Shown here: positions 7,671 to 58,059 of the stretch, piece by piece
How positions within the stretch are numbered: the first letter of the stretch is position 1
Layout of the letters: each line of letters opens with the position of its first letter
Program-made: the position numbers and the translations under genes
Notes under the pieces: model-generated
What the model was told of the DNA's origin: nothing
Database searches by the model: none
Seen by the model: only the letters and a program-made list of their open reading frames with translations
Assembly (NCBI GenBank): GCA_964501335.1
Contig: CAZCTC010000010.1
Coordinates: 1-64,000, forward strand
DNA from: an uncultured Anaerolineales bacterium
GTDB taxonomy: Bacteria; Chloroflexota; Anaerolineae; B4-G1; SLSP01
DNA: 64,000 nt
Reading direction: 5' to 3'

Positions 7671-7700
7671 TTTTTATAGCATGGCCCCAGCCTTGTAACG

Positions 7701-37352: not shown

Positions 37353-39782
37353 ATGAGATTTCGAAGATTTTGGATTTTTATCACGCTGATTTTATGGGCG
37401 GGGTGTCAGAGTGGTGTAAATTCGGGAAATGCGATCCTGGAGCCCGGGGTTAACCGTTCGGTTTTGGCGACAGGAACTCCTTTGCTTTCTACCATAACCA
37501 CAAGTCCCATTTATGGAGATCAACTGGCCGTTGGATGGAGTGTGGATCGCAGCTGGGGGCTGGATTACGATCTCGAGGCGAAAGGGAATGTCCATGGGGG
37601 GCAATACGCCATTGCCGTGAGTCCGCATATGGATGATGCCGAGCTTTTGTTTTCAACCCGTGTCGATAGCGATATTTATGATCAATTTCATTTATTAGGG
37701 ATTCGGTTTTGGTTAAGTGTGGATGCGCCGCTGGATATGAATTCCCTGTCATTGGTCCTGGTGGAAGATATTCCTTTGCAGGGGACGGCGGCGAGTGCGG
37801 TTTCTACCCGAACCGTAGCGGTTCCTTTGACATCGTTAGGGATTGGCGATTTGCAGCCCTTCCAGTGGACTTTGGTTGAATTTTGGCTTTCAAAATTTTC
37901 CGATGCCGCTTTGCCGCGTTATTTCCGAGGGTTCTACCTTCAAAGCAGCGGGGAGCAATGGGTTTCTTTTCGAGTTGATGATATAGAGCTGATGGTTTTG
38001 CGCGATACGGTGGCTCCCATTTTGCTGGAAGTGAAAAATCCCGAGTTGGATCAGGTGGTGCTTTATTTCAGCAAGGATGTGAATCCTTATCTGGTAGCCA
38101 ATCCGGCTGTTTATCATATTTCTGTACGGGGTAACGGCAAGGATGAATCCATGGGCGTTGCGACCATTGATTATTCTCCTTTGCGGCGGGAGGCTCTATT
38201 GCATCTGGCAGAGCCATTGCATGCCGGTGAGACGTATCAGGTCGATATGGAGGGCCTTGCGGATCTTGCCTCCCCGCCGAATCTGTTGGTTTCCGAGCCG
38301 ATGACTTTTACGGCCGGGACCTTGATGGTTTTGATCGAGGCCGGGCAGCCTACCCATTCGATCAGCCCTTACGTTTATGGAGTGTCGGGATTGGATCCGG
38401 AATACATTGGAGATTTGCGCCCTGGTTTGATCAGTTGGGGGGGGAATCCCAGCAGCCGTTATAACTGGAAACTGGGCAATGCCTGGAGTGCCGCCCGCGA
38501 TTGGCAATATAAAAATGGAACGTATGACTATCAAGGTGCTTCCGCATCCGATGATTTTGTTCGGCGTAATCGTGAATGGGGAATTGGGACCCGGTTGGCT
38601 GTACCGACTTTAGGATGGGTAGCCCGGGATACCAGCTCTTGTTCTTTCCCGCAGGCCGACGGTAGTTGCGGCAATGCCGGCAATGCTACCTGTGATCATC
38701 CGGGCCCGATAGCTGATCCTTCTCAGAGCAGTGTGGCGGCCCCTCCTGAATTTGTGGCGGAATGGATTACGCATCTGGTCACAGATGTGCAGGGAGATTT
38801 AACTTTTGTGGCGATGGATAATGAGCCGGAACTTTGGGGGGTGACGCATTATGATGTGCATCCTACCTGTACGACCTATGATGAAATCCTTGAGCGTTTT
38901 GTTTCCTATGGCGAGGCGGTCAAAGCCGTTTCTCCCCAAAGCAAAATCGTCGGTCCTGTGACCTGCTGTTGGGCGTTTTACTGGAGCACCCTTGGGGGTA
39001 CGGTTGATAAGATAGCTCATGGAGGGGAAGATTTTCTGCCCTGGTTTTTAAAAGAGATGGCTGAATATGAAACTCGAACCGGAACCCGGCTTTTGGATTA
39101 TCTGGATATCCATTATTACCCGGAAGGGTTTTATTCGGATGATGTTCAGCCGGTTGTGGCGGAAGGTCGCTTGCGTTCCACACGTTCTTTATGGGATAAG
39201 AGTTTTAACGATGAATCCTGGATCAATCAACCCATTTATTTGATTCCCAGGATGAAGGAGATGATTGCCAAATATTATCCGGGAACCGGTTTTGGAATCA
39301 GCGAATGGAATTGGGGCGCGGATAAAACGATGAATGGGGCCTTGGCCATCGGCGATGTGTTGGGGATTTTGGGACGTGAAAATGTAGATTACGCGGCTTA
39401 CTGGCGTTATCCCGAGCCGGGAAGTGCCGGTTACAACGCTTTTAAGTTGTATACCAATTACGATGGGCAGGGAGGGCGCTTTGGCAATATTTCCGTACCG
39501 GCGTTTTCCAGCAATTCGAATTTGATCAGCGTTTATTCGACTTTGGATGAGAAACAGGAAAACCTTTATGTGATGTTGGTGCATAAGGGATTGGAGCGGC
39601 CCATGACTATTTTGGTTCAGGTGAAGGGCGTTTTGCCTGGAAGTAAAGGCCGTTGGTATCGGTTGGATCAGATGCAATCTCAGCAAATTACTTCCGGGGA
39701 GCTGGCGACAGGATCGCAGTTTGATCTGGAACTGTCGCCTTACTCGATTACTTTACTGGTGCTACCGTTGGAGGCTCAATAA
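37353..39782 (+). CDS. Lipoprotein glycoside hydrolase, GH44-like (clan GH-A)
   Basis: Signal plus ILWAGC lipobox. Catalytic-domain motifs SPYVYG..ISWGGNPSSRYNWKLGN and MDNEPELW (NEP acid/base) resemble GH44 endoglucanases. An N-terminal CBM-like domain is shared with the upstream gene. Confidence 0.5.
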   Translation: MRFRRFWIFITLILWAGCQSGVNSGNAILEPGVNRSVLATGTPLLSTITTSPIYGDQLAVGWSVDRSWGLDYDLEAKGNVHGGQYAIAVSPHMDDAELLFSTRVDSDIYDQFHLLGIRFWLSVDAPLDMNSLSLVLVEDIPLQGTAASAVSTRTVAVPLTSLGIGDLQPFQWTLVEFWLSKFSDAALPRYFRGFYLQSSGEQWVSFRVDDIELMVLRDTVAPILLEVKNPELDQVVLYFSKDVNPYLVANPAVYHISVRGNGKDESMGVATIDYSPLRREALLHLAEPLHAGETYQVDMEGLADLASPPNLLVSEPMTFTAGTLMVLIEAGQPTHSISPYVYGVSGLDPEYIGDLRPGLISWGGNPSSRYNWKLGNAWSAARDWQYKNGTYDYQGASASDDFVRRNREWGIGTRLAVPTLGWVARDTSSCSFPQADGSCGNAGNATCDHPGPIADPSQSSVAAPPEFVAEWITHLVTDVQGDLTFVAMDNEPELWGVTHYDVHPTCTTYDEILERFVSYGEAVKAVSPQSKIVGPVTCCWAFYWSTLGGTVDKIAHGGEDFLPWFLKEMAEYETRTGTRLLDYLDIHYYPEGFYSDDVQPVVAEGRLRSTRSLWDKSFNDESWINQPIYLIPRMKEMIAKYYPGTGFGISEWNWGADKTMNGALAIGDVLGILGRENVDYAAYWRYPEPGSAGYNAFKLYTNYDGQGGRFGNISVPAFSSNSNLISVYSTLDEKQENLYVMLVHKGLERPMTILVQVKGVLPGSKGRWYRLDQMQSQQITSGELATGSQFDLELSPYSITLLVLPLEAQ

Positions 39783-42064: not shown

Positions 42065-43264
42065 ATGCCCGTGGAGATTTTATATGGGTTAATTTTGGGG
42101 TTTGAACTGGTGTTGTTGCTGCCTGTAGGGTATTTGCTGATTTTGATGCTGGCTGCTTTGTGGCCCCGAAAAGCGCTGCTTTATCCTGATAAACCTCACA
42201 CCCGTTTTGCCGTTTTGATTCCAGCCCACAATGAAGAACAATGGCTTCCGGATAATTTAGCGGCTTTGAAGGCCCAAAATTACCCTTCGACTCTTTATCG
42301 GGTGTATGTGATTGCCGATAACTGTTCCGATCATACCTTGGTTCTGGCCCGCAGTGCGGGAGTGACTGTCTATGAACGCCACAACACGGTCCAAATTGGC
42401 AAAGGCTATGCTTTAAATGCATTGATCGGCCATCTTGAGGCTGAGAAAAAACGTCAGGGGACCTTCGATGTTTTTGTGGTGGTCGATGCTGACACGGTCC
42501 TGGCCCCAGACTTTTTGCAGGTTATGGATGGTTATTTTCAGCAGGGCGCGCGCGTTGTTCAAGGCTATTACACAGTGCGGGATGTGGATAGTTCCTGGGT
42601 GGCGGCTTTGCGTTATATGGCTTTGGTAGTTTTGCATTATCTACGGCCTTTGGGGCGTAAGCGACTGGGGGGGTCTGCTGGATTGAAAGGGAATGGGATG
42701 GCCTTTACGGCGGATTTGATCCGGAAATTTTCCTGGAGCGGTTCGGTTACCGAAGACATTGAATATCACATGGCTTTGTTGCTGGCCGGCGAAAAGGTCT
42801 GGTTTGCTCCTGAGGCCCGATTGGAGGCGGTGATGCCCTCGACCTTGAAAGGGGCCCGGACCCAAAATGTGCGTTGGGAAGCCGGGCGGCTTCAAATGGC
42901 TGCGCAATATTTAAAACCTTTGCTGATCGAAGCACTTCGCCGGCCCCGGTTTGTTTTGTGGGATGCGATGATTGAGCATTTAATTCCACCTACATCCGTA
43001 TTGGTTTCTCTGATTTTGTTGGTTTGGGGAGGGGGGATCGTTGCGGGTTTGGTTAATCGAATGTGGCTGGCCGCCTGGCTGGGGGGCGGATTGTTTTTGG
43101 GGATTGTGATCTATCTGTTAGCCGGTTTGGTATTGGTTCGGGCGCCTTTTCAAGTGTGGAAGGCTTTGGCTTATGTGCCGTTCTTTCTGGTATGGAAGGT
43201 GGGGCTATATTTTCGAATCCTTTTTCGCCGAGAAAAACAGGGATGGGTTCGTACGGAGCGTTAA
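42065..43264 (+). CDS. Membrane-integrated GT2 glycosyltransferase (processive synthase-like)
   Basis: N-terminal TM, GT-A domain AVLIPAHNEE..VVVDADT, C-terminal TM bundle. Confidence 0.75.
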   Translation: MPVEILYGLILGFELVLLLPVGYLLILMLAALWPRKALLYPDKPHTRFAVLIPAHNEEQWLPDNLAALKAQNYPSTLYRVYVIADNCSDHTLVLARSAGVTVYERHNTVQIGKGYALNALIGHLEAEKKRQGTFDVFVVVDADTVLAPDFLQVMDGYFQQGARVVQGYYTVRDVDSSWVAALRYMALVVLHYLRPLGRKRLGGSAGLKGNGMAFTADLIRKFSWSGSVTEDIEYHMALLLAGEKVWFAPEARLEAVMPSTLKGARTQNVRWEAGRLQMAAQYLKPLLIEALRRPRFVLWDAMIEHLIPPTSVLVSLILLVWGGGIVAGLVNRMWLAAWLGGGLFLGIVIYLLAGLVLVRAPFQVWKALAYVPFFLVWKVGLYFRILFRREKQGWVRTER

Positions 43265-43266
43265 CA

Positions 43267-44010
43267 ATGGCTGAATTTAAAAATATTGAAGATTTGGTCC
43301 GTGTGGAACAGGTGGTGGAATTGTTTGCCCGGGGCGATTTTCCCAATAAAGGTTTTCTTCGATCCCTGGAGTTTGGGGGGCGATGGTTGATCTGGATCGG
43401 AGGAACCGAATTGCACCGCTTTTCCAAAAGGGCGCTGGATATCGTCGGAGCTTTGATCGCTTTGATTCTGGCGGCGCCCTTGATGGTGGTGACCGTGTTG
43501 CTGATCAAATTGGATTCTCCAGGGCCGATTCTCTTTTTTCAAACCCGGGTGGGACGGTGGGGACGGAAGTTTACCTGTTATAAATTCCGTTCCATGTATA
43601 TCGATGCTGAGAAAAGACTTCTCGATTTACATCAACTCAATGAAGCGGATGGTCCGATTTTTAAAATACGTCGGGACCCCCGGGTTACCCGGGTGGGGCG
43701 GGTGATCCGAAAACTGAGCATTGACGAATTGCCGCAGATTTTCAATGTTCTCAAAGGGGATATGTCTCTGGTCGGCCCCCGACCTCCGTTGCCCCGGGAG
43801 GTGGTTCGTTATACCCTGGAACATCGACGGCGCCTGGATGCGATTCCCGGTATTACCGGATTGCAGCAGATTTCCGGACGGAGCGATTTGCCTTTTGAAC
43901 GTTGGGTGGCTTTGGATGTGGAATACATCGAAAATCAGTCGTTTTGGTATGATCTGGAGATCCTTTTGAAAACAATTCCGACGGTATTGGGGGGCAAGGG
44001 CGCTTATTAA
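43267..44010 (+). CDS. Polyprenyl-phosphate sugar phosphotransferase (Bac_transf / WbaP-EpsL family)
   Basis: KRALDIVGALIAL..PGPILFFQTRVG..FKFRSM..DELPQ..MSLVGPRP..PGITGLQQ. Confidence 0.85.
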   Translation: MAEFKNIEDLVRVEQVVELFARGDFPNKGFLRSLEFGGRWLIWIGGTELHRFSKRALDIVGALIALILAAPLMVVTVLLIKLDSPGPILFFQTRVGRWGRKFTCYKFRSMYIDAEKRLLDLHQLNEADGPIFKIRRDPRVTRVGRVIRKLSIDELPQIFNVLKGDMSLVGPRPPLPREVVRYTLEHRRRLDAIPGITGLQQISGRSDLPFERWVALDVEYIENQSFWYDLEILLKTIPTVLGGKGAY

Positions 44011-44032: not shown

Positions 44033-45502
44033 ATGCGAAAATTGTTGGTAATTGCCGGGGTGCCGGTGGATGATTTGACGATGGAAGAGGTATTGGATCG
44101 CATTGAATCTTTTGTGGATTCGGGTTCTTTTCATCAGATAGCTACGGTCAATGCGGATTTTGTGGTACAGGCCTGGGATGATCCGGAGTTGCGCTACATT
44201 CTGCAGGTGGCGGATATATTGACGCCGGATGGAATGCCGTTGGTGTGGGGGGCGCGGTTGTTGGGCGTCCCGCTTTATGGACGTGTGACGGGAGCGGATC
44301 TGGTTCCTGCTTTATGTGAACGCGGGGCTCAAAGGGGGTGGCGATTTTATTTTTTAGGAGCCGGCCCGGGGGTGGCGGTGCGGGCGGCTCAGGTACTGAC
44401 AGCTCGTTATCCGGGATTGCAAATTGTAGGGATTGCTTCTCCGCCTAATTTGCCCGTTGTAGAGATGGATTTTTCGGTAGTGGAGCAGATCCGTGAGGTT
44501 CGGCCTGACCTTTTGTTGGTCGCTTTTGGCAATCCCAAACAGGAAAAATGGATCCATATGCATGGATTGGAGTTGGGGGTCAAAGTAGCGATTGGGGTCG
44601 GCGGGACATTTGATTTGATTGCGGGAAAATTACAGCGTGCTCCTCAGTGGATGCAAAAAGGCGGGTTGGAATGGTGTTATCGTTTGTTTCAAGAACCGCG
44701 GCGTTTATGGCGGCGGTATGTGCGGGACTTAATTCGTTTTTCGCGCTTCTTTGGCGAGCAATGGTGGGCTCAACAGCAGGGGCGCATTCCTTTAGGCGTT
44801 ATACCTCAAATTGAAGAGGCCGAATTGAACGATCCGGTTACCTTAAAAGGTCCGCTTGTAATTTCATTTAATGGTCCCTTGACGGTTGCCACGCGGGAGA
44901 CTTTAGTCAGTTGTGTGGAAGATGCTTTGTTGCGCAGTGCCAATCTGGTGTTGGATGCGAGCCGGTTACCTTTTGTCGACAGTGCCGGGTTGGGGACGCT
45001 GGTCGATTTGTCGCGCCGGGCCCGGGCGGCGGGAGGTGACTTGAAGCTGGCGGGGGCTTTACCGCAAGTGGTCCGGACTTTGGAGTTGACCCAACTGGAT
45101 CGGTTTTTGACATTGGTGCCTTCTCTTGAGGATGGATTGGCAACCCATCGAGATCCTTTACCCCTTTTATCCTTAACGCGTCAGGTAGGATGTTGGACGG
45201 TTCTGCCGCTTCCGGCGCGTTTGGACCTGCACACGATTCCTCAGGTGCGCTCTGAAGCTGAATCTGCGCTGGCTGCGGTTCCTACTCTGGTTTTAGATTT
45301 CGGTTCGACTCGTTTTCTGGACAGTGCCGGCATTGCGATTTTGCTTTCCTGGCATCGCCAGGCCCGACAGCAAGGCGGTGAAGTGCGATTGGCGGCTCTT
45401 TCCCGGGAGATCCGGCGCACCTTGGAGCTGGCAGGTGTTGAATCCATATTGTCCTTGTATTCCAGTGTTGAAGAAGCGCTGATGCAAGGGGTCAGCCGAT
45501 AG
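44033..45502 (+). CDS. WecB/TagA/CpsF (GT26) glycosyltransferase fused to two C-terminal STAS domains
   Basis: N-terminal 250 aa align to TagA/WecG (TPDGMPLVWGARLLG..FGNPKQEKWI..VGGTFDLIAG..RAPQWMQKGGLEWCYRL). It is followed by two STAS units, each with a DSAG(L/I) motif (VDSAGLGTLV; LDSAGIAILL). Confidence 0.75.
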   Translation: MRKLLVIAGVPVDDLTMEEVLDRIESFVDSGSFHQIATVNADFVVQAWDDPELRYILQVADILTPDGMPLVWGARLLGVPLYGRVTGADLVPALCERGAQRGWRFYFLGAGPGVAVRAAQVLTARYPGLQIVGIASPPNLPVVEMDFSVVEQIREVRPDLLLVAFGNPKQEKWIHMHGLELGVKVAIGVGGTFDLIAGKLQRAPQWMQKGGLEWCYRLFQEPRRLWRRYVRDLIRFSRFFGEQWWAQQQGRIPLGVIPQIEEAELNDPVTLKGPLVISFNGPLTVATRETLVSCVEDALLRSANLVLDASRLPFVDSAGLGTLVDLSRRARAAGGDLKLAGALPQVVRTLELTQLDRFLTLVPSLEDGLATHRDPLPLLSLTRQVGCWTVLPLPARLDLHTIPQVRSEAESALAAVPTLVLDFGSTRFLDSAGIAILLSWHRQARQQGGEVRLAALSREIRRTLELAGVESILSLYSSVEEALMQGVSR

Positions 45503-45549: not shown

Positions 45550-47214
45550 ATGAAGGCCATTATTCTGGCAGCCGGAATGGCATTGCGAGGTCCCCTGGGG
45601 CATTTTATTCCGGGTGTTTTGCTGCCATTAGGGAACAAACCTTTGTTGGAACATCTTTTGGAGACGCTGGCCCGCTCGGGATTTCGGGAAGTGGTAGTGA
45701 TTTTGCATGAGCTTCCCTATGAGGTGGAACGTTATTTTGGAGATGGGCAGCGCTGGGGATTGGAAATTGATTATCGTTTAGAGCAGCATCCCGATTCTCT
45801 ATCCCAATTACGTCGTTTTGCGCTTCAGGCTGAAGAACCTTTTTTGGTGTTGCCGGGAAATATTCTGGTTGATTTTGATTTACACCGTCTGATAACTTTT
45901 CATCAAGAATCCTCAGCGTTGATAACAATAGCTTTAGGATCGGGAACTGCTGAGGGGCAACGAATTCGGGTGGGGGCGCGTGGGCGGGTGATTGCGTTAC
46001 CGGAGAAAAATGGTCGGAAAGTTTCCTCTGATTATGTCGATAGCGGTATCTGGGTTTGTTCGCCTGCTATAGGGATAGAACTTTCTTCCATGGGACGGAC
46101 TTTAAAGACTCTGGATCAGGGGCGTGTTTTGAATGACTTGTTTGACAAGGGGGTCGTGATTTGTGGTTATCCCATGATGACGTCGGGGCAGACGATTCGT
46201 TGTGAAAATGATTGGTTAGTGGCGCAGCGGGCTTTATTAAAAGCTGAGGTTGGGCGATTGTCTCCTTCTGGAAAATTGCTCAAACCGGGGGTTTGGATAG
46301 GGCGGCATACGATAATTCATCCTAAAGCGCAATTGGTACCTCCCGTTGTGATCGGTGACTATGCTCGGATTGGGGCAGAGGCCTCTATTGGGCCTGAAAC
46401 GGTGTTGGGAACGCGCGTTTTTGTCGATAAGGGGGCGACGATTGCTCATACCATGGTCGCCGAAGGTACCTATATCGGTCGCTGGCTTAATCTGGAAAAT
46501 TGTTTGGTTTATCGCAATCTTCTGATCAAGGCGCCTACCGGGACGAGCCTTTTTGTTCCGGATTCATTTCTTTTAGATGCTACGGTGGTAGAAACCAGAG
46601 TTGAAATCTTGAGACGCTGGGGCGAACGATTGGGAGCCTTAATCTTGTTGGGGTTGAGTTTGCCGTTGTGGGGGCCGGCTTTAGGTCTGGCCTTTATCGG
46701 GGGATCGGGCCCTTTGATTGTAAGTGAAGTTCAGGCGGTAGCGGATTGGCAATCCCTTCATAAGGAAGGTCGGGTTGCCTGGCGGTTGGTGACGGTGCAT
46801 CGACTGCGTTTTGATCCGGACACCTGGGCTGGGAAATTGCTGCAATGTTTGGGATGGGCGGATTTACCCAAACTTATTGATGCTGTTTGTGGAAAGCTGG
46901 CTCTGGTGGGGGTCAGCCCATTGACTTCCGAACAGGTGGGGTATTTACAGGATGAGTGGCAACAGTTGCATTTTCGGGCTCCCACCGGGTTGACAGGTTT
47001 ATGGTATCTGAATGCGGATCAGGAAGAAAGTTCTCTGGATTTGGATATGCAGTTGATTGCCGACAGTTATTACGTGGCAACGCGGAACTGGATGGAGGAC
47101 TTGCGAATTTTGTTTCGTACGCTTCGGATTTGGGGGCGCCGTTTGCGCCGCTCGATTTCCAAACCCTGGGAGCGTAAGGTTCCGGCCCTGGCGAGGCAAT
47201 TTGAAGAAGATTAA
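45550..47214 (+). CDS. Tri-domain protein: sugar-phosphate nucleotidyltransferase plus left-handed beta-helix plus C-terminal Bac_transf phosphoglycosyl-transferase domain
   Basis: MKAIILAAG..LLPLGNKPLLEH (NTP_transferase). Hexapeptide repeats (IGDYARIGAEASIGPETVLGTRVFV). TM segment LGALILLGLSLPLWGPALGLAFIGG. Then LALVGVSPLT..GLTGLWYL..DLDMQLIADSYYV..DLRILFRT, matching the Bac_transf C-terminus. Confidence 0.7.
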   Translation: MKAIILAAGMALRGPLGHFIPGVLLPLGNKPLLEHLLETLARSGFREVVVILHELPYEVERYFGDGQRWGLEIDYRLEQHPDSLSQLRRFALQAEEPFLVLPGNILVDFDLHRLITFHQESSALITIALGSGTAEGQRIRVGARGRVIALPEKNGRKVSSDYVDSGIWVCSPAIGIELSSMGRTLKTLDQGRVLNDLFDKGVVICGYPMMTSGQTIRCENDWLVAQRALLKAEVGRLSPSGKLLKPGVWIGRHTIIHPKAQLVPPVVIGDYARIGAEASIGPETVLGTRVFVDKGATIAHTMVAEGTYIGRWLNLENCLVYRNLLIKAPTGTSLFVPDSFLLDATVVETRVEILRRWGERLGALILLGLSLPLWGPALGLAFIGGSGPLIVSEVQAVADWQSLHKEGRVAWRLVTVHRLRFDPDTWAGKLLQCLGWADLPKLIDAVCGKLALVGVSPLTSEQVGYLQDEWQQLHFRAPTGLTGLWYLNADQEESSLDLDMQLIADSYYVATRNWMEDLRILFRTLRIWGRRLRRSISKPWERKVPALARQFEED

Positions 47215-47232: not shown

Positions 47233-47571
47233 ATGAAAGCGACGGTAGAGCAGATTGGGCGTTTGACGGTGGTCAGTTTGAATGGACGTTTTGACGCGCA
47301 TACGGCGGGGGTGGCTCGGGAAATTTTTGAACACAAGGTTTCTTGTTCTATGCCCGTTTTGATCGATATGAGTCGGGTGGTTTTTGTCGACAGCATGGGG
47401 CTTTCGGTACTGGTCAGCAGTTTGAAACATTCCCGGGAAGCCGGAGGGGAACTGGCCCTGGCGGGATTGCAACCCACAGTCCGTTTGATTTTTGAATTGA
47501 CGCGCCTGGATAAGGCCTTCCGGATCTATCATGATCGGGCTTCTGCGGAAGCCGAAATGGGTATTCTTTGA
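47233..47571 (+). CDS. STAS-domain anti-sigma-factor antagonist (SpoIIAA/RsbV-like)
   Basis: VFVDSMGLSVLV with conserved phosphorylatable Ser. 112 aa. RBS AGGAGG. Confidence 0.85.
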   Translation: MKATVEQIGRLTVVSLNGRFDAHTAGVAREIFEHKVSCSMPVLIDMSRVVFVDSMGLSVLVSSLKHSREAGGELALAGLQPTVRLIFELTRLDKAFRIYHDRASAEAEMGIL

Positions 47572-49109
47572 TGTGGGATTCTTTTTGCCGCGCCAATCGG
47601 GCCTTTTTGCGCCGATTGGCCGGAACCTGGGAAGCGCAGGGCTGGCAGGCCTATTTTCTGGCGGATCGGGATGGGCGATGGCTGTGGCCTCCGGTTCCTG
47701 TTGCCTTATCTCCCGAGGCCATTGTTCACGAGCTCCCGCCGGCAGGATGGGAGATTTTACCGCTTTGTGTGGCGGGGGGAGGATTTATCGGCTGTTCGCC
47801 GGTGACCTCTCATGGGGAGCTGGCGGCTCAGGCTTTGCTTTTGGAACAGCTTTTATCGCGGGAACTCGAACTTGAGGCGATGGCCGGGGAACTGGCCGAG
47901 GCTTACGATCAACTGGTGGCGATGTATCGGGTTTCTGAAGCAACGCGTTCTCAGTTGAGTTTGCATGACATTCTCAGCTCATTTGTGTTGATGGCTTTGA
48001 GATTGAGCGGGGCTGTTCACGGCTTTGCCGTGATCCTTTATGGACAGGAATTCCGTTGTATTATGAGTACGTTGCCTTCCGGTCCTGAGCCGGTGATGCC
48101 GCTGTTTCAGCAGGCCCGCCTTCAACGGCGTTCTATTTTAGGCAATGCTCCACGAGAATTACGGCAATGGGCTACCCGGCTTCCGGCATGGATTGAACGG
48201 GGGTTGATTATCCCTATTGCAGTGGAAGGGGAAATCGTTGCCGGTTTGGGACTCTTCAACAAGGCTACGGATTTCACTTCGGGGGATTTAAAACTTCTCG
48301 ATGCCCTGGCCAATGAGGTGGGGGTGATTGTGGAGCGGGCTCGTTGGCAGGCTCGCTTGTTGGTCCAGGAGCGGGTGCGGCGGGAATTGGAGATTGCGGC
48401 GGAAATCCAGGCTCGAATGTTGCCCCGTATTTTGCCTCAGGTGCCGGGGTTGGAAATTTCAGCCCATTGCCGGCCGGCCAATGAGGTCGGAGGTGATTTT
48501 TACGATTTTGTCCGCCATCCTGGCGGCGCCCTGGGGGTGGTGTTAGGAGATGTGACCGGCAAGGGCGTTCCGGCGGCGCTCTTTGTCACCGTGGCCCATA
48601 TTTTGTTGCATAGCGGCCTGACCTATACTCAAACGCCCTATGAGATGGTGTTGCGATTGAATTCGGATTTGTACGAAGAGCTTAACCAGGCGGGGATGTT
48701 TATTACGCTTTTCCTGGCTTATTATTATGCGGAAAGTCGGCGGTTGGTGATGGTCAATGCCGGACATGCGCCGGTGTTGCTTTATTCGGCGGCGCAGAAA
48801 CGTTGTAAGTTGTGCATTGCCGATGGCCCCCCTTTGGGTGTACTTCCTCAAATTTTAAGTTTTGAACAAACGGTGGTGTTGACGCCGGGGGACATTTTAG
48901 TGGTGTTGAGTGATGGGTTTAATGAAATGATGAATCCTCAAGGCGAGTTGTTTGGGATCGATCGGCTGATTGAGCTGGTAGAATCCAATGCCGATACGAC
49001 GGCGACCGATCTGCGGATGCGGCTCTTTAAAGCGGTTACGTCGTTTGCTCAGGAAACTCCTCAGGGTGATGATCTGACGCTCTGTATTCTCAAAGCGACT
49101 GCTGAATAA
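47571..49109 (+). CDS. GAF-domain PP2C (SpoIIE/RsbU-like) serine phosphatase
   Basis: C-terminal PP2C motifs GGDFYDF..GDVTGKGVPAAL..LSDGFNE..GDDLTL. An N-terminal GAF-like sensor region. ATG overlaps the STAS stop (TGATG). Confidence 0.8.
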   Translation: MWDSFCRANRAFLRRLAGTWEAQGWQAYFLADRDGRWLWPPVPVALSPEAIVHELPPAGWEILPLCVAGGGFIGCSPVTSHGELAAQALLLEQLLSRELELEAMAGELAEAYDQLVAMYRVSEATRSQLSLHDILSSFVLMALRLSGAVHGFAVILYGQEFRCIMSTLPSGPEPVMPLFQQARLQRRSILGNAPRELRQWATRLPAWIERGLIIPIAVEGEIVAGLGLFNKATDFTSGDLKLLDALANEVGVIVERARWQARLLVQERVRRELEIAAEIQARMLPRILPQVPGLEISAHCRPANEVGGDFYDFVRHPGGALGVVLGDVTGKGVPAALFVTVAHILLHSGLTYTQTPYEMVLRLNSDLYEELNQAGMFITLFLAYYYAESRRLVMVNAGHAPVLLYSAAQKRCKLCIADGPPLGVLPQILSFEQTVVLTPGDILVVLSDGFNEMMNPQGELFGIDRLIELVESNADTTATDLRMRLFKAVTSFAQETPQGDDLTLCILKATAE

Positions 49110-49149: not shown

Positions 49150-49626
49150 ATGATCATGAATGGTGATCCGGAATGCGTCTCTTTGCGGTTTCCCAGTCAC
49201 ACCCGGTATTTGGGGTTAGTGAGCGGCTGCGCGGCTGAAATTTGTCGAATGATGGGATCGGCTGGTAACGCTGCTCTGGTTTATGATGTGCAGTTGTCCA
49301 TTAATGAAGCTGTGGTCAATGCCATTCAACATGCCTATGCCGGCCGCAGTGATGGTTGGGTGGCTGTGGATTTTTCCCTTTATGCAGATCGTTTGGAAAT
49401 TTCGATTATCGATTGGGGGCAGGGGTTTGATTGGCAGGAGTTACCCGTTCCCGATCTTTCGCAACCTTTAGAACATGGATACGGTTTATATCTGGTATGC
49501 CGGGTGATGGATGAGGTGATCTATCATGCTGATCCTATTCAGGGTAACTGCCTGCATTTGATCAAACGTCTGCCCGGCCCGCTCAGGAAGGATGGTAGCG
49601 ATGGCAACGATTCTGGTGGTCGATGA
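49150..49626 (+). CDS. Anti-sigma regulatory factor, HATPase_c Ser/Thr kinase (RsbW/SpoIIAB-like)
   Basis: GHKL motifs NAIQHAY..DWGQGF..GYGLYL. Confidence 0.8.
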   Translation: MIMNGDPECVSLRFPSHTRYLGLVSGCAAEICRMMGSAGNAALVYDVQLSINEAVVNAIQHAYAGRSDGWVAVDFSLYADRLEISIIDWGQGFDWQELPVPDLSQPLEHGYGLYLVCRVMDEVIYHADPIQGNCLHLIKRLPGPLRKDGSDGNDSGGR

Positions 49627-49966
49627 TGATGTGGCCAGCCGCCGGCTGGTCACTTACATTTTGGAGCGGCATCAACACATTCCAATTCCTGCCTGTAGTG
49701 CGCAGGAAGCTCTGGAATGGCTGGAGGAGAATTGTCCGGAGCTGGCCGTGATGGATATTGCGATGCCGGTGATGGATGGAATGGCTTTGCTTCATCAGTT
49801 GCGAGCCGATCCGCGGTTTCAGAAGCTGCCGGTGTTGGTGGTGACGGCCAGCAGTTATGAGGAGGCCCGCGTCATTGCCGGTGTGGAAGGCGCGAATGGT
49901 TTTTTGACGAAGCCGATCAGTTCGCAGGACCTTCTGGAAGCGGTTGAGCGGCTTTTATCTCGATAA
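49601..49966 (+). CDS. Stand-alone response-regulator receiver (REC) protein
   Basis: ILVVDDD..AVMDIAMPVMDG..TKP. Start taken at MATIL (GGAAGGA upstream). Overlaps the kinase 3' end. Confidence 0.85.
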   Translation: MATILVVDDDVASRRLVTYILERHQHIPIPACSAQEALEWLEENCPELAVMDIAMPVMDGMALLHQLRADPRFQKLPVLVVTASSYEEARVIAGVEGANGFLTKPISSQDLLEAVERLLSR

Positions 49967-50082: not shown

Positions 50083-50113
50083 TTTTCGGCGGCTTTCCGA
50101 AGCCGCCGAAAAA
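50083..50113. repeat. GC-hairpin repeat (tttttcggcggc-tttccgaa-gccgccgaaaaa)
   Basis: Same subfamily as 19815 and the truncated copy at the window start (about 40..60). Confidence 0.65.
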
Positions 50114-50364
50114 TGAAAGACAGCACTCTCTTCCCATCCAGCGTGTCGTTTTCTACCAAACAAAGGCTTTTTGCGGGACGCAAGAAACCGAAGATGTGCA
50201 GGCCGAGGGGCGTAAAAGGTACTTGGGGCGGTTTGCCTCTCTTGCAGCTTGGTGTATACTCTACCTTGTTCGCTTACCTGCTGATCGGTAATTTCCCAAG
50301 CTTTTTCATTTGGTGCTGGTTTGGTTTCCCATTAGTCAGAAAAACAAGACCAGGAAAGTACTTT

Positions 50365-51690
50365 ATGGCAAAACCATCCATCGTTTGGAACGTAGAACAG
50401 ATCCTTGCGTTTGCGCCCGATGCCCAGGTGGGGAAGGCGGGACAGGGTTTGACCCGGCCTGCGAAGTGGACCGACCTGGGGTGTAACGAGGAAGCTGTTT
50501 GGGGTCTTCAAAAGGGCTCCGGCAGTGAACCTTATCAGGTTGTAGTGGACCCCGTAGCTCCCGCTTTCAAATGCAGTTGTCCCAGCCATAAAAAACCCTG
50601 TAAACATGCGATCGGTTTGTTATTGCTGGCCCAGAGCAATTTGAAGGCTTTTACTGAGGCCGATCCGCCGGATTGGGTGAAGAGCTGGCTGGCAGGACGG
50701 GCGGCTGCGGCAGCGAAAAAGGCCCGGACGGATAAGTCGCCTGTGGATGCGGAGGCTCAAGCCAAACGGGCGGCTAAACGGGAAGCCAAGGTGCAACAGG
50801 GGATTGATGCTCTTTATCTCTGGCTGGAAGATCTCATGCGCCAGGGATTGGGGTCTCTTTCGAGTCAGCCGACCTCCTTTTGGGAGACCCAGGCGGCGCG
50901 GTTGGTGGATGCTCAGGCTGCGGGATTGGCGCGCCGGGTGCGTGATTTGGAATCGGTGATTTATTCCGGGGAAGGGTGGCCGGCGCGAATGCTGGAACGC
51001 CTGGGACGCCTCTATTTGTTGCTCGATGCTTTCGGGCGTCTGGAATCTCTGCCTCCCGACTTGCAGGATGAAGTGCGAACTCAGGTGGGCTGGAGCCAGG
51101 ATCAGGATTCGCTGCTGAAGGTCGACGGCGTGCGGGATCTCTGGGCGATTGTAGGACAGCGAGAAACCGAAGAGGATCGGCTGCGGGTGCGGCGGACCTG
51201 GTTGTGGGGAATTCAGAGCCAGCGAGGTGCGCTGGTTTTGGATTTTGCAGCTCCCGGTCAGACTTTGGAAGGCGGCGGGGCTCCCGGCATCCTGGTGGAT
51301 GGGGAATTGGTTTTCTGGAACAGCCCTTATCCCCAGCGAGCGATTTTCAAAAATCGGGGCATTTCTCGCCCTATGGATAGGCTTCCCGGCTATTCGGGGG
51401 TGCAGGCGGCTCTCGGAGTCTACGGGGCTGCCCTTGCTGCGAATCCCTGGATGGATCAGTTCCTTTTCCTTTTAGATGAGGTCCGACCTGTGTTGCAGGG
51501 TTCCACCTGGTGGATCTGTGACCGGGAGAATGCTCGCCTGCCCCTCTCCATCGTTCCTCAAGAGGGCTGGCGGTTGATGGGGATGAGCGGGGGGCGCCCC
51601 TGTGTGTTGGCGGGGGAGTGGAACGGTGAAAAACTGACTCCGCTCGGTGTCTGGGCTGAAGGTGTTTTTACCGTTTTCCGAAATGCCTGA
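50365..51690 (+). CDS. SWIM zinc-finger protein
   Basis: SWIM CxCx(n)CxH signature in FKCSCPSHKKPCKHAIGLL. Start reassigned to ATG 50365 (AGGAAAG upstream) because the ORF's 5' part overlaps a hairpin repeat. Confidence 0.7.
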   Translation: MAKPSIVWNVEQILAFAPDAQVGKAGQGLTRPAKWTDLGCNEEAVWGLQKGSGSEPYQVVVDPVAPAFKCSCPSHKKPCKHAIGLLLLAQSNLKAFTEADPPDWVKSWLAGRAAAAAKKARTDKSPVDAEAQAKRAAKREAKVQQGIDALYLWLEDLMRQGLGSLSSQPTSFWETQAARLVDAQAAGLARRVRDLESVIYSGEGWPARMLERLGRLYLLLDAFGRLESLPPDLQDEVRTQVGWSQDQDSLLKVDGVRDLWAIVGQRETEEDRLRVRRTWLWGIQSQRGALVLDFAAPGQTLEGGGAPGILVDGELVFWNSPYPQRAIFKNRGISRPMDRLPGYSGVQAALGVYGAALAANPWMDQFLFLLDEVRPVLQGSTWWICDRENARLPLSIVPQEGWRLMGMSGGRPCVLAGEWNGEKLTPLGVWAEGVFTVFRNA

Positions 51691-51734
51691 CCTCTTTGCC
51701 TCTTTTTGTCTATGTTAAATCCCGGAGGTGAAAT

Positions 51735-53282
51735 TTGAGCCTGTGGTCTGACTATGTGGCTGCTGCCTTGGTGGGGACAGCCCGGGCCGGATTGCCTGCT
51801 TTGTCCAGTCCGACGACCCCTCTGGAAAAATTGGTGGCTCAGTTGCAAGGGCTGCCGCCTGAACGTCAATTGTTGGCTGCCAGTGCTACCGTGGCACTCT
51901 GGCAGCAGGCCGGGGTGGAACCGTTGGTGGCCGGCGATGGGCTGCCGGCTGAAGCCGAAGCCGAGAAGGAATCGTTTTGTTCCAGTCAGGCGACGGCGTT
52001 GTTGACCCGCATTTTGCAGGGGGAGCTCCCGGCGTTGCTTCCGGAATGGCTGCGGCGCTTGCGGGAATCCCACGGGGTGCTGCCGTTGCGGGTGCTGCCG
52101 GAAATGTTGGATATGGCGGTGCAGCAGGCTTATCTGCAGGATGCCATTGTGCCGGTTTTAGGAAGTCGGGGGCGCTGGTTGGCGGCCCACAATGTGACCT
52201 GGACCGAGCTGTTGTTGCCTGAAACGCCGGAAGCTCAGCTGGAAGCCTGGCAAACGGGCAGCCGGGGGGTGCGGCGAGCGCTGTTGCGTCAGGCACGTCA
52301 AGCCGATCCTCAACGGGCCTGGACTCTGTTACATGCCAGCTGGAGCCAGGAGGCCGCGGCGGAACGGGCGTCGTTCCTGGAGTTGTTCAAAGTCGGTCTG
52401 AACTCTGCGGATGAGCCTTTTTTGGAGACGACCCTGGATGATCGCAGCAAGGTGGTGCGGGGGGTGGCGGCGGAGTTGCTTTCTCAGTTGCCTGGGTCCG
52501 GATTGATGCAGCGGATGAAGGCTCGCCTGGAGCCCTTGATTGCGCTGGGAAAGGGGCGCCGTCTGATGAGCGCCGAGAAGTTGAAGGTGACCCTGCCGAC
52601 TGAATGTGATGCGGCGATGGAACGGGATGGAATTGATCCTAAACCACCTTCGGGCATCGGGGAGCATACCTGGCTGTTGTTGCAGATCATCGCGGCGGTC
52701 GATCCGGCCTATTGGTGCGAACATTGGGAAAAAACGCCCGATGAACTGATCCATCTGGCGAAGGACAGCGATGAAGAACGGGCGCTCTTGGAAGGTTGGG
52801 CCCGGGCTGCCATCCGCTGCCGCCGGGAAGATTGGGCCAGGGCGCTCCTTTTCCGCTGGATCGAGAAGCCCTGGACGGCCGTGGCCCTGCGGCAGGCGCC
52901 TTATACCTTTATCGAACAAGAAGCTTTGATCCGGTTGGTGCCGCAGGCCGATCTGGAAGATCGTTTGATTATGTTGTCGGGGACAGCGGTGGGAATGAAA
53001 GATGAAGGCCGTCTGTTGTTGACGATTTTCCAGGGCCATAAACGGCCCTGGGGGGCGGATCTGACGACGGCTTTTATTCATATGATGCGCTCTTTCCTCA
53101 AAAAGAAAGTAGGGGGCTATTGGTATTGGTGGAATGCGCTGGCGGAGCTGGCGCTCTACGCCGACCCCCAACTGGTCAGGGAATCCAGTCAGGGATGGCC
53201 TGAGAATATGTCGCGACAGTCTTCGCTGGATCAGTGGAATTCCATTTTGGAGTTCCGTCGAACCATGAATGAAGCTTTCTAA
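51735..53282 (+). CDS. Large alpha-helical protein (DUF5691-like) of the SWIM/MoxR/vWA cassette
   Basis: TTG start with GGAGGTG RBS. Leu/Ala-rich helical repeats. Sits between the SWIM and MoxR genes. The DUF name is from memory. Confidence 0.5.
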   Translation: MSLWSDYVAAALVGTARAGLPALSSPTTPLEKLVAQLQGLPPERQLLAASATVALWQQAGVEPLVAGDGLPAEAEAEKESFCSSQATALLTRILQGELPALLPEWLRRLRESHGVLPLRVLPEMLDMAVQQAYLQDAIVPVLGSRGRWLAAHNVTWTELLLPETPEAQLEAWQTGSRGVRRALLRQARQADPQRAWTLLHASWSQEAAAERASFLELFKVGLNSADEPFLETTLDDRSKVVRGVAAELLSQLPGSGLMQRMKARLEPLIALGKGRRLMSAEKLKVTLPTECDAAMERDGIDPKPPSGIGEHTWLLLQIIAAVDPAYWCEHWEKTPDELIHLAKDSDEERALLEGWARAAIRCRREDWARALLFRWIEKPWTAVALRQAPYTFIEQEALIRLVPQADLEDRLIMLSGTAVGMKDEGRLLLTIFQGHKRPWGADLTTAFIHMMRSFLKKKVGGYWYWWNALAELALYADPQLVRESSQGWPENMSRQSSLDQWNSILEFRRTMNEAF

Positions 53283-53310
53283 TTAACCATAAAGAACTTA
53301 AGGAGAACTT

Positions 53311-54396
53311 ATGGAGACGAATCTGCTACGCCAACATGCCGAACAGCAATTTGCCGAGGAGCTGCATGAGCTGGCCAGGGTGGACACCCGTGCTCGCCCT
53401 CCCAAGTGGAAGCTTTCGCCCTGGGCGGTAACGACCTATCTGTTGGGGGGCAAGCTGTCCAGCGGCTTTGTCGTTTCGCCCAAGTACATCGGCAACCGGG
53501 CTTTGATGGAAATTGCCGTGGCGACGTTGACGACGGATCGCGCTTTGTTGCTTTATGGGGTGCCCGGGACCGCCAAGAGCTGGGTCTCGGAACATCTGGC
53601 CGCTGCCGTCAGCGGGGATTCTACAATGATCGTCCAGGGGACGGCGGGGACCAGTGAAGAGGCCATTCGCTACGGCTGGAACTATGCCAAACTGCTCACT
53701 GACGGTCCTTCGATCGATGCCCTGGTTACCAGCCCGGTGATGCGGGCGATGACCGAGGGCAAGATTGCCCGCGTGGAAGAGTTGACCCGTATTCCTTCGG
53801 ATGTGCAGGATGCGCTGATTACGATCCTTTCTGAAAAATCGCTGCCGATTCCCGAACTCAATTCGGAGGCGCAGGCGGTGAAGGGGTTCAATATCATTGC
53901 GACGGCCAATAACCGCGATCGCGGCGTCAATGAACTTTCCAGCGCGTTGAAGCGCCGTTTCAATACGGTGGTGCTGCCGGTTCCCAGTACGTTGGAAGAG
54001 GAAACCAAGATCGTTTTGCAGCGCGTGGCTTCGTTGGGCAAGGCGCTGGAGCTGCCGGCGGAGGCGCCTTCAGCGGATGAGGTGAAGCGGATTGTGACGA
54101 TCTTCCGCGAGTTGCGCGACGGCACGACGATCGACGGCAAGACCCGTCTGAAGTCGCCGAGCGGCACGCTGAGCACGGCGGAAGCGATTTCGGTGGTCAA
54201 CAGCGGGCTGGCGTTGGCCGGCTATTTCGGCGACGGCCAGTTGCGGGCTTCGGATATGGCCTCCAGCATTACCGGCGCTGTGGTGAAAGATCCGGTGCAG
54301 GATCGGATTGTCTGGCTGGAATATCTGGAGACGGTGATCAAAGAACGCGATGGTTGGAAGGATCTCTATCGGGCGTGCCGTGAGATGGTGGATTGA
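53311..54396 (+). CDS. MoxR-like AAA+ ATPase
   Basis: Walker A LLYGVPGTAKS, Walker B/sensor region IARVEELTR..ATANN. Size and topology fit MoxR/AAA_5. RBS AAGGAG. Confidence 0.85.
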   Translation: METNLLRQHAEQQFAEELHELARVDTRARPPKWKLSPWAVTTYLLGGKLSSGFVVSPKYIGNRALMEIAVATLTTDRALLLYGVPGTAKSWVSEHLAAAVSGDSTMIVQGTAGTSEEAIRYGWNYAKLLTDGPSIDALVTSPVMRAMTEGKIARVEELTRIPSDVQDALITILSEKSLPIPELNSEAQAVKGFNIIATANNRDRGVNELSSALKRRFNTVVLPVPSTLEEETKIVLQRVASLGKALELPAEAPSADEVKRIVTIFRELRDGTTIDGKTRLKSPSGTLSTAEAISVVNSGLALAGYFGDGQLRASDMASSITGAVVKDPVQDRIVWLEYLETVIKERDGWKDLYRACREMVD

Positions 54397-54479
54397 GGAT
54401 GCGGTGGGCGTGAGCCGCTGCAAAGATGAACGGTACCTATCTGGCTTGCCGATGACACCCATAACAAGGAGGCTGTACG

Positions 54480-56861: not shown

Positions 56862-56874
56862 GAGGCCGGGAACG

Positions 56875-58059
56875 ATGGCAAAAGGATCGACCTCAATGGA
56901 AGTGGTGGATGAGCGCACCCGGCGCTGGCGTCTGATTCTGGGCGGCGGCGAGGCCGATGGGACCGGAATGTGCGCCGGAATAGGGGGCGGTTTGAGTGCG
57001 GAGGATATCGGGATGGATAAGGCGCTGACGGCGCTTTACGACAGCGATCGGAGCGCCGGTCTGGGCAGCTCGGCTCCCAATGTGGCGCGCTGGCTGGGCG
57101 ATATCCGCACCTATTTTCCGCAGAGTGTGGTGCAGGTTTTGCAGAAGGATGCTCTGGAGCGGTTGGATCTGAAGCAGATGTTGATGGAGCCGGAGATGTT
57201 GGAACAGATCCAGCCGGATGTCCATCTGGCGGCGACGCTGGTTTCACTCAAGAGCGCGTTGCCGGGTAAGACGCGGGATACGGCGCGGGTGGTGGTACGC
57301 AAGGTGGTGGAAGATCTGGAGCGCCGTCTGGGCGAGCCGCTGCGCCAGGCGGTGCGGGGCAGCCTGGACCGTACGGCGCGGACTTTTCGCCCGCGTTTCA
57401 ATGAAATCGACTGGAACCGGACGATTCGGATCAACCTGAGCCGCTATCAGAAGGATTATCACACGATTATCCCGGAACGGCGGGTGGGCTATCCCCGGCG
57501 GCGCGGGTCGGCGCTGCGGCATATCGTGCTGTGCGTGGATCAGAGCGGTTCGATGGCCTCTTCGGTGGTCTATGCCGGGATCTTCGGGGCGGTGCTGGCT
57601 TCGTTGAAGGCGGTGAGCACCCGGGTGGTGGTTTTCGATACCGAGGTGGTGGATCTGACGGAGATGATTGCCGATCCGGTGGAGATGTTGTTCGGGACGC
57701 AGCTGGGCGGCGGTACCGATATCAATCGGGCGCTGGCTTATTGTCAGACGGTCATCGACAAGCCGCAGGATACCATTCTGGTGTTGTTGAGCGATATGTA
57801 CGAAGGGGGCAACGAGACGGAGATGATCCAGCGGGCCCGGGCCCTGGTGGATTCCGGGGTGCAGATGATCGGGTTGCTGGCGCTGGACGATCACGGGGCG
57901 CCGTCGTACAGCCATCGGGTGGCGGCGGATCTGGCGGCGCTGGGCGTGCCGTCGTTTGCCTGCACGCCGGATCAGTTCCCGCAGATGATGGCGGCGGCCA
58001 TTCAGCGGCAGGATATGTCGATGTGGGCGGCGACGGAAGGGATTGCGATCGCCCACTGA
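56875..58059 (+). CDS. vWA-domain protein (MoxR partner)
   Basis: MIDAS DQSGSM..GGGTD. C-terminal vWA domain, N-terminal helical region. Confidence 0.8.
   Translation: MAKGSTSMEVVDERTRRWRLILGGGEADGTGMCAGIGGGLSAEDIGMDKALTALYDSDRSAGLGSSAPNVARWLGDIRTYFPQSVVQVLQKDALERLDLKQMLMEPEMLEQIQPDVHLAATLVSLKSALPGKTRDTARVVVRKVVEDLERRLGEPLRQAVRGSLDRTARTFRPRFNEIDWNRTIRINLSRYQKDYHTIIPERRVGYPRRRGSALRHIVLCVDQSGSMASSVVYAGIFGAVLASLKAVSTRVVVFDTEVVDLTEMIADPVEMLFGTQLGGGTDINRALAYCQTVIDKPQDTILVLLSDMYEGGNETEMIQRARALVDSGVQMIGLLALDDHGAPSYSHRVAADLAALGVPSFACTPDQFPQMMAAAIQRQDMSMWAATEGIAIAH

Follow-up and report, generated by a model that had tools for sequence, protein, structure and literature searches.

A candidate non-catalytic fusion of pyrophosphorylase-like and phosphoglycosyl transferase-like domains beside a partner-switching module in a Chloroflexota exopolysaccharide cluster

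Introduction

Priming by phosphoglycosyl transferases (PGTs) commits scarce undecaprenyl phosphate (UndP) and nucleoside diphosphate (NDP)-sugars to one glycan. All members of the monotopic PGT (monoPGT) superfamily are described as having a re-entrant membrane helix and an Asp-Glu dyad with Mg2+, and as acting via a covalent intermediate; in PglC, Arg88 and Arg145 bind UndP, and the R88Q variant is nearly inactive (PMC10519829), while the active site is Asp93-Glu94 (PMC10186338). Here, we present an analysis of a gene at positions 45550..47214 of a 64,000-nucleotide stretch (the window; positions 1 to 64,000 of contig CAZCTC010000010.1, assembly GCA_964501335.1) from an uncultured Anaerolineales bacterium of the Chloroflexota. 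The gene encodes a pyrophosphorylase-like domain, a left-handed beta-helix (LbH) and a monoPGT-like domain in a single polypeptide, from here on the fusion. We found that catalytic residues are lost from both enzyme-like halves. On balance, and by a narrow measure, we favor a role for the fusion in the initiation of a Wzx/Wzy-type exopolysaccharide, as a membrane-anchored subunit that does not catalyze but regulates or scaffolds and is tied to a partner-switching module.

The throttling of priming is only beginning to be understood, and the closest described systems include the following. In Anabaena, All4160, which combines STAS and Bac_transf domains, is switched by the kinase Alr3423 and the SpoIIE-like phosphatase HenR, and such fusions are rare outside cyanobacteria (PMC13555669). 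EpsW activates the PGT EpsZ (PMC12802240), the DUF of WbaP senses nucleotides and the small PGT CapM is phosphorylated (PMC10942596). Bifunctional PGTs (BiPGTs), in which a monoPGT core is fused to acetyltransferase or glycosyltransferase domains, form a described class (PMC11257628). Finally, GMPPA is a non-catalytic regulator of the GDP-mannose pyrophosphorylase GMPPB (PMC11228364).

Results

The fusion is a genuine gene of a widespread family

The fusion and its parts are as follows.

45550..47214, + strand: fusion open reading frame (ORF), 554 amino acids (aa), ATG start, uninterrupted; pyrophosphorylase-like, LbH and degenerate monoPGT domains
45550..46254, + strand: pyrophosphorylase-like (NTP_transferase) domain, residues 1-235; catalytic motifs degenerate
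46270..46539, + strand: short LbH, residues 241-330; GMPPB_C/eIF2B type
46552..46575, + strand: conserved linker FVPDSFLL, residues 335-342, joining the LbH to the PGT-like domain
46630..46704, + strand: re-entrant membrane helix of the monoPGT fold, residues 361-385
46705..47151, + strand: cytoplasmic portion (residues 386-534) of the monoPGT-like domain, which retains the fold but not the catalytic residues

A GGAGG Shine-Dalgarno sequence lies 8 nt 5' of the ATG. The fusion has three significant Pfam matches that do not overlap: NTP_transferase (PF00483; residues 2-173, E 6.8e-19, 68.8 bits against a cut-off of 21.2), Hexapep (residues 247-281, E 2.3e-10) and Bac_transf (PF02397; residues 425-526, E 1.6e-12, 47.7 bits against a curated cut-off of 27, covering profile positions 77-175 of 179). 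LbH_EIF2B and GMPPB_C gave weaker, sub-threshold matches at residues 265-330. NCBIfam was concordant, with an Arch_glmU-like match over residues 1-355 and a WbaP-like match over residues 413-527, all far under the equivalog cut-offs. The Pfam and NCBIfam matches thus bear out the tri-domain composition proposed in a first-pass annotation of this DNA (NDP-sugar pyrophosphorylase, LbH and Bac_transf), including the assignment of the C-terminal region to Bac_transf.

That annotation had named a frameshift error joining two genes among the results that would undo its proposal. We found no point in support of a frameshift or misassembly and regard the probability of such an artefact as negligible. 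The same collinear architecture is common to 17 proteins from independent assemblies (23-43% identity) and to ~100 full-length cluster representatives from several phyla; the linker motif FVxDxFLL is conserved across the family, with Asp338 invariant; and an identical protein is encoded, beside the same neighbor genes, on a separately assembled Logan contig. Because the architecture is conserved in many relatives and recovered in an independent assembly, we conclude that the fusion is not an assembly artefact, and frameshift and misassembly are ruled out.

A profile of the C-terminal domain matched 193 clusters (50% identity) at E <= 1e-30, most of them with proteins of 500-600 aa in which the domain lies at ~340-545. 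The best match to the fusion among species representatives is from a Chloroflexota metagenome-assembled genome (MAG; 37% identity). In the databases, family members are labeled "sugar transferase" or "NDP-sugar pyrophosphorylase family protein".

The PGT-like domain keeps the monoPGT fold, including the re-entrant helix

Residues 361-385 are the sole strongly hydrophobic stretch in the fusion (the only 19-residue windows with a Kyte-Doolittle score >1.6) and had first been read as a single transmembrane segment. Our alignments contradict this reading. The family profile aligns with residues 3-188 of Campylobacter concisus PglC, including the re-entrant helix (E 1.7e-25), and Pro372 of the fusion (in Leu371-Pro372) aligns with Pro24, the kink residue of PglC (in Ser23-Pro24); 131 of 144 family members retain this Pro, and in the full-length model the helix breaks at residue 370. 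On the alignment to the re-entrant helix of PglC, we rejected a spanning helix between two modules in different compartments.

A fold search with the whole protein gave N-domain matches only, and the C-terminal domain was modeled and searched apart. The model of residues 335-554 has a pLDDT (predicted local distance difference test) score of 86 and a predicted template modeling (pTM) score of 0.78, and Foldseek against the PDB matched it only to PglC (8g1n, 8e37) and WbaP (8t53). The PglC match (E ~1e-9, TM-score 0.67-0.70) extends over ~190 columns and covers the helix, and WbaP 8t53 also matches the domain in sequence (phmmer, E 7.9e-10). As judged from alignment and model, the PGT-like part is a whole, shortened small-monoPGT domain and not merely a C-terminal core. 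Because the hydrophobic segment is the re-entrant helix of this fold, both soluble parts of the fusion are predicted to sit against the membrane on the cytoplasmic side.

The PGT-like domain lacks the catalytic and UndP-binding residues

Residue equivalences were taken from three independent alignments: MAFFT with the canonical protein P0033, phmmer against WbaP, and hmmalign with PglC numbering. The affected sites are the following.

46843..46863, + strand: Gln432 ... Ala437-Asp438 replacing PglC Arg88 ... Asp93-Glu94 (three concordant alignments)
46912..46920, + strand: Val455-Ser456-Pro457 replacing PglC Pro111-Arg112-Pro113, the Pro-Arg-Pro motif (hmmalign)
47017..47019, + strand: Asp490 replacing the UndP-binding PglC Arg145 (hmmalign)

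Accordingly, the Asp-Glu dyad that characterizes the superfamily, the UndP-binding arginines and the Pro-Arg-Pro motif are all missing from the fusion, and all are present in a small PGT encoded nearby. The first-pass annotation had described the C-terminal region as a conserved catalytic core; the homology to Bac_transf and the fold stand, but the GLTGLW and D..YY motifs on which that description drew are structural, and the catalytic motifs are absent.

The loss is a property of most of the family. In a census of 164 family sequences, Asp-Glu was absent from 144 (degenerate), and the positions compare as follows with the 20 dyad-keeping sequences.

Arg88 position: degenerate, mostly Glu (72); dyad-keeping, Arg in 19/20
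Asp93 position: degenerate, His 49, Asp 27, Tyr 15; dyad-keeping, Asp in 20/20
Glu94 position: degenerate, Arg in 112/144; dyad-keeping, Glu in 20/20
Pro111 position: degenerate, Val in 112/144; dyad-keeping, Pro 10, Asn 9
Arg112 position: degenerate, Lys in 83/144; dyad-keeping, Arg in 20/20
Arg145 position: degenerate, variable; dyad-keeping, Arg in 18/20

The distance from the helix Pro to the dyad position is also reduced, at 65 residues in the fusion versus 82 in the neighboring PGT, with medians of 66 in degenerate versus 92 in dyad-keeping members. In the main degenerate clade, Arg stands at the Glu94 position and Lys at the Arg112 position (e.g., L004 10001-11635), a pattern more suggestive of a new constraint on the site than of random decay. 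The subclade of the window protein does not share the conserved Arg; there, the dyad position is free (AG, AD, DR, RD, TH, RN). The degenerate PGT domain is about as conserved as the rest of the protein (family-wide mean pairwise identity of 41% versus 42%), and between the window protein and its nearest relatives the PGT domain is 44-50% identical versus 33-38% for the N-domain. Because the PGT domain is as conserved as the rest and a new Arg is fixed in the main clade, the fusion gene is, by these sequence comparisons, maintained and not decaying.

Alternatively, the chemistry could have been relocated or changed, with the domain using other residues or acting otherwise on the UndPP-sugar or on UndP, for example as a hydrolase or by binding the carrier lipid. 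The conserved acidic residues, namely the invariant Asp338 and the near-invariant Asp505 and Asp517, would fit such a role, and the Arg/Lys pair of the main clade at the Glu94 and Arg112 positions could bind phosphate. However, in alignments with PglC and WbaP, Asp505 and Asp517 belong to the D..YY and D..IL motifs common to canonical PGTs, Asp338 sits in the linker before the membrane helix, and the subclade of the window protein has not retained the Arg at the Glu94 position. No alternative catalytic constellation is evident, and we consider different chemistry quite improbable. A simple shift of the catalytic residues was rejected, as no alternative invariant acidic pair was found in the family alignments.

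The pyrophosphorylase-like domain is degenerate in the window protein and in most relatives

Sugar nucleotidyltransferases such as RmlA and GlmU carry the signature GxG(T/S)R(L/M)x4..PK, and the roles of the motifs considered here are those established for these enzymes. The best PDB match of the two N-terminal domains is 8x7s (tlr0611; E 1.6e-29, residues 1-334). Foldseek matched them to tlr0611, MurU, VTC1, GMPPA/GMPPB and eIF2B, with a TM-score of ~0.8 to MurU over the catalytic domain. Two stretches stand out.

45565..45627, + strand: degenerate nucleotide-binding signature, LAAGMALR-G (residues 6-14) and IPGVLLP (residues 20-26) (alignments to 8x7s and GMPPB; census)
45853..45873, + strand: PGNILVD, in which Asn104 replaces the metal-binding Asp of the GD motif (alignments and census)

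Compared with LAAGKGTRv in alignments to 8x7s and human GMPPB, the G-loop of the fusion, LAAGMALR-, has lost the second Gly and the Thr, and one residue is deleted, the longer stretch reading LAAGMALR-GPLGHFIPG; the pLDDT of the model is <50 at residues 9-17. Gly22 stands where PKP has the catalytic Lys, the GTAGA sugar loop is replaced, and the second Asp (W/YxD motif) is absent, the site reading TSGQTIRC. We scored five motifs (G-loop, PKP Lys, GD, EKP Lys and second Asp), for which reference enzymes score 5/5. The window protein scores 1/5, by the sugar-phosphate-binding Lys of EKP only, and 88 of the ~100 full-length degenerate members score 0-1. Within that set, only P0002-P0006 and P0008 reach 5/5, and P0009 and P0201 reach 4/5. 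In the Armatimonadota member L009, the N-domain is fully canonical and the PGT dyad absent. None of the family members examined has every motif of both domains; closest to fully intact is the Ignavibacteriaceae member L026, with an intact dyad, an N-domain score of 4/5 and no PRP.

The beta-helix comprises ~90 residues, is of the GMPPB_C/eIF2B type and forms a strand ladder in the model. A GlmU-type acetyltransferase role for it was not supported: the fusion reaches 40.8 bits with the glmU models, whose cut-offs are 367-718, and the LbH is only ~90 residues long. Of the GlmU/RmlA-like N-terminus in the first-pass annotation, the NTP_transferase homology and fold and the LbH hold, whereas the length is not that of GlmU, the scores are below the glmU cut-offs, and one of five motifs is left.

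The same annotation had proposed that one polypeptide couples NDP-sugar synthesis with the lipid-carrier priming step, i.e., that the fusion is truly bifunctional, both synthesizing an NDP-sugar and passing the sugar-1-phosphate on to the polyprenyl-phosphate carrier. In its favor, both domains score above their Pfam thresholds and keep their folds, bifunctional PGT fusions are a recognized class (PMC11257628), and L026 comes near to having both sites. The residue loss in both halves contradicts this proposal: the equivalents of Asp93 (Ala437), Arg88, Arg112 and Arg145 are missing together with four of the five nucleotidyltransferase motifs, the dyad position varies freely in the closest relatives, and a canonical PGT is encoded two genes upstream. 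We therefore regard bifunctionality as very improbable. By homology and fold, as read from sequence and model, the fusion belongs to the Bac_transf/monoPGT and NTP_transferase superfamilies. Because the defining catalytic features of both fail in its sequence, classifying it with the PGTs, the pyrophosphorylases or the bifunctional PGTs would be wrong.

Alternatively, the dead PGT domain could be a membrane tether in a metabolon, anchoring the pyrophosphorylase beside the real PGT so that the NDP-sugar is made where it is used; as the pyrophosphorylase of the window copy has also decayed, this copy would then be a relic or a purely structural subunit. The members that keep the nucleotidyltransferase motifs without the PGT dyad (P0002-P0006 and P0008 with 5/5, P0009 with 4/5, and L009) speak for a tether, as does the fact that the N-domain is the most diverged part of the window protein relative to them (33-38% versus 44-52% identity). 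However, with 88 of ~100 members at 0-1 of five motifs, an active pyrophosphorylase is the exception. Moreover, a mere anchor would need no PGT-like soluble domain conserved at 41%, in which Trp470, LVGxxPL and GLTGLW are family-specific invariants and Arg is fixed where PglC has Glu94, and the tether leaves the linkage to STAS genes described below unexplained. We consider this alternative unlikely.

The fusion lies between a canonical small PGT and a partner-switching module

The genes around the fusion are the following.

42065..43264, + strand: GT2 glycosyltransferase, which precedes the small PGT in most related loci
43267..44010, + strand: stand-alone small monoPGT (Bac_transf 2.2e-67; EPS_sugtrans 2.4e-89)
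44033..45502, + strand: WecG/TagA-type glycosyltransferase fused to two STAS domains (WecG-2xSTAS; Pfam and NCBIfam), conserved beside the fusion
47233..47571, + strand: single-domain STAS protein of the anti-sigma-antagonist type with a DSMG motif, adjoining the fusion across phyla
47568..49109, + strand: GAF and SpoIIE/PP2C serine phosphatase (SpoIIE 2.3e-42; GAF_2 1.6e-06)
49150..49626, + strand: RsbW/SpoIIAB-like serine kinase (HATPase_c_2, 1.7e-21)
49592..49966, + strand: single-domain response regulator (REC; Response_reg and synteny), last gene of the cluster

The small PGT, which the first-pass annotation had correctly picked out as a separate canonical Bac_transf enzyme, carries P24, R88, D93, E94, PRP and R145 (PglC numbering), all canonical, and judging from these residues is likely the real priming enzyme of the cluster. 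All three STAS domains of the window have a D-S-x-G motif, and Pfam finds no STAS match within the fusion polypeptide itself. A cognate kinase, a SpoIIE/PP2C phosphatase and a STAS protein are encoded with the fusion, with no sigma-factor target, in an arrangement that is conserved in relatives: in the window, no sigma factor adjoins or follows the RsbW-like kinase, and the genes after the kinase module form an unrelated SWIM/DUF5691/MoxR/DUF5682/VWA set.

WecG-2xSTAS has a DSAG motif in each STAS domain (Ser317 and Ser431) and stands beside the fusion in all Chloroflexota-type loci. By these motifs, the second lipid-linked step may also be directly phospho-regulated. The published precedent is a STAS domain fused to a PGT, not to WecG.

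The block of the window recurs in the Chloroflexota-type loci L002, L004, L008, L011 and L087-L089 (30-43% identity) in the order small PGT, WecG-2xSTAS, fusion, STAS, usually GAF-PP2C, RsbW-like kinase and usually REC, sometimes without GT2, GAF-PP2C or REC. Further loci contain parts of it.

L005, metagenome contig: PGT, WecG-2xSTAS, fusion
L009, Armatimonadota: PGT, WecG, fusion, STAS
L010, "delta proteobacterium" MAG: PGT, fusion, STAS, RsbW
L037, Chitinophagales: GT2, PGT, WecG, PP2C, STAS, fusion
L063 and L074, Chitinophagales: STAS, fusion

Altogether, most loci pair the fusion with a STAS gene, and such pairs occur in Chloroflexota, Armatimonadota, the "delta proteobacterium" MAG, Chitinophagales and Ignavibacteriaceae. 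A genome scan with patterns from nine closer sequences, all derived from the N-domain, returned 80 loci, which are mostly ordinary NDP-sugar synthases, with ~10 fusions. A gene for a calcineurin-like phosphoesterase (Metallophos) was seen next to the fusion or not far from it in several related loci (L087 6838-7824, L088 11713-12660, L005 11200-12159 and L002 16597-17547) and is absent from the cluster of the window.

A small PGT is adjacent in 12 of 14 degenerate-fusion loci, and each of the nine adjacent PGTs whose sites were read has all eight canonical residues. One prediction was that a fusion with an intact dyad would do without a partner PGT. This held in all six such loci (L006, L026 and L090-L093), in which neither gene calls nor a six-frame search revealed another PGT. 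The association between an adjacent PGT and dyad status (Fisher's exact p = 0.0007) is indicative only, as the loci are phylogenetically related and the p value overstates their independence. Dyad-intact fusions are also linked to STAS genes: L090 and L093 have one immediately upstream, and L026 and L091 have one close by. In L092, the gene directly upstream of the dyad-intact fusion (7460-7915, 151 aa) has no Pfam match and is weakly similar to the L093 STAS protein (E 1.5e-5 in a four-sequence set); by this similarity, it may be a diverged STAS.

Other features of the window

The GC content is lower from ~28000 to 50000 (49-53% versus 57-63% in the flanks). This region coincides with the whole Wzx/Wzy polysaccharide cluster, which includes Wzx (28626..30122), a Wzy-like protein (31054..32601), two hexapeptide acyltransferases, several GT2/GT4 glycosyltransferases and a GH44 protein (37353..39782) and ends at the REC gene (49966); it could be a horizontally acquired island. 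Just upstream of the cluster, 24487..27087 (+) encodes an 866-aa Major Vault Protein (MVP) homologue with matches to Vault repeats (8e-67), the MVP shoulder (8e-53) and Vault_2/3/4, and with a 425-aa JGI cluster mate named "major vault protein". Downstream, 50113..58059 (+) holds a tight co-directional set encoding a SWIM zinc-finger protein, DUF5691, an AAA_5 (MoxR-like) ATPase, DUF5682 and VWA_CoxE, followed up to 63117 by VWA, PP2C_2, WD40 and LRR proteins. A very large ORF (2253 aa) lies at 800..7561 (+). All annotated genes of the window are on the + strand, and the GC skew is positive in every 2-kb bin.

Discussion

The adjacent small PGT would prime the carrier lipid, with the fusion acting as a regulator or scaffold at this step and probably binding the STAS protein. 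The kinase and phosphatase would set the phosphorylation state of the free STAS protein and of both STAS domains carried by the WecG-type transferase of the second step, and the fusion would thereby gate the first lipid-linked step or the first two. For the N-terminal module, oligomerization is a likely function, perhaps with NDP-sugar sensing in some relatives, similar to the regulation of GMPPB by GMPPA or to uridine-nucleotide sensing by the DUF of WbaP. Because dyad-intact, STAS-linked relatives exist, we suggest that the family descends from an active PGT that already had this accessory domain; a separate small PGT would later have taken over catalysis in the Chloroflexota-type lineage.

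Extending this proposal to the family as a whole, with at least 144 census sequences from several phyla, we tentatively put forward, at a little short of even confidence, that these proteins form a widespread family of double pseudoenzymes in which a pyrophosphorylase-like sensor or oligomerization module and a dead monoPGT provide a membrane-bound STAS output that gates a separate small PGT.

Several points weigh against a non-catalytic regulatory role. The role is deduced from residue loss and gene neighborhood, and the neighborhoods come from the related loci discussed above. Two degenerate-fusion loci have no adjacent PGT, L063 (on a 4.6-kb contig) and L074. One acidic residue is left at the dyad position (Asp438), and the EKP Lys is kept as Lys153 (PEKNG). 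The nearest relatives (P0002-P0006, P0008 and P0009) keep a canonical pyrophosphorylase domain, and the family may have an enzymatic role that was lost in this copy. Finally, the beta-helix is modeled with low confidence (low pLDDT).

The fused architecture itself is not extraordinary; what is notable is that a large branch of pseudo-PGTs combines complementarity to a real PGT next to it with a link to partner switching. The literature on monoPGTs treats the Asp-Glu dyad as universal, and, within the library searched, we found no paper combining a phosphoglycosyl transferase with a pseudoenzyme and none combining a monotopic phosphoglycosyl transferase, a fusion and a nucleotidyltransferase. 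If the proposed role is correct, the family would be the first branch without catalysis in a superfamily whose members are all said to have the dyad, and the fusion would represent a pseudoenzyme regulator of priming, a non-sigma target for partner-switching systems and a new post-translational control point at the first committed step of bacterial polysaccharide synthesis. The current database labels of these proteins will mislead pathway reconstruction and pipelines that predict PGT substrates.

Comparison with known systems

The PGT-like domain shares its fold with PglC (8e37, 8g1n) and the catalytic domain of WbaP (8t53) along almost the entire PglC chain, with the Pro-kinked re-entrant helix included, and shares the structural motifs LP, LVG..P, G(I/L)TGLW and D..YY. 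In contrast to both, the fusion has no equivalents of Asp93-Glu94, Arg88, Arg112 and Arg145, and a 335-residue N-terminal module is added; its helix-dyad segment is shorter than in the neighboring PGT and in dyad-keeping relatives. WbaP also has an accessory part; however, that of the fusion has a pyrophosphorylase-like fold instead of the CoA_binding_3-type DUF, and the fusion lacks a four-helix transmembrane bundle. Similar to BiPGTs, the fusion joins a monoPGT core to a second domain of a sugar pathway, but its partner is a pyrophosphorylase-like/LbH module, and both halves are without catalytic residues.

For the two N-terminal domains, the best match in sequence and fold is tlr0611 of Thermosynechococcus (8x7s, deposited as a UTP-glucose-1-phosphate uridylyltransferase), which has canonical GKGTR, PKP and GD motifs where the fusion has GMALR-, PGV and GN, and which lacks a PGT domain. 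GMPPA (7d72) and eIF2B gamma/epsilon likewise combine the NTP_transferase fold with a short C-terminal beta-helix and use it for regulation or assembly and not for catalysis; these proteins are soluble and eukaryotic, whereas the module of the fusion is joined to a membrane-embedded PGT-like domain.

A further analogy is provided by the SypA/SypE system of Vibrio. With regard to EpsW-EpsZ, the locus in the window also ends with a single-domain REC. In the case of All4160, a set resembling a partner-switching system acts directly on a polysaccharide-initiating enzyme and not on a sigma factor, and genes equivalent to that set flank the fusion. The two systems differ in where the STAS domains and the active site reside: in All4160, the STAS domain is within the active PGT, whereas in the window it is a separate protein and occurs twice on a WecG-type transferase, the PGT-like protein of the module is degenerate, and the PGT of the active type carries no STAS domain.

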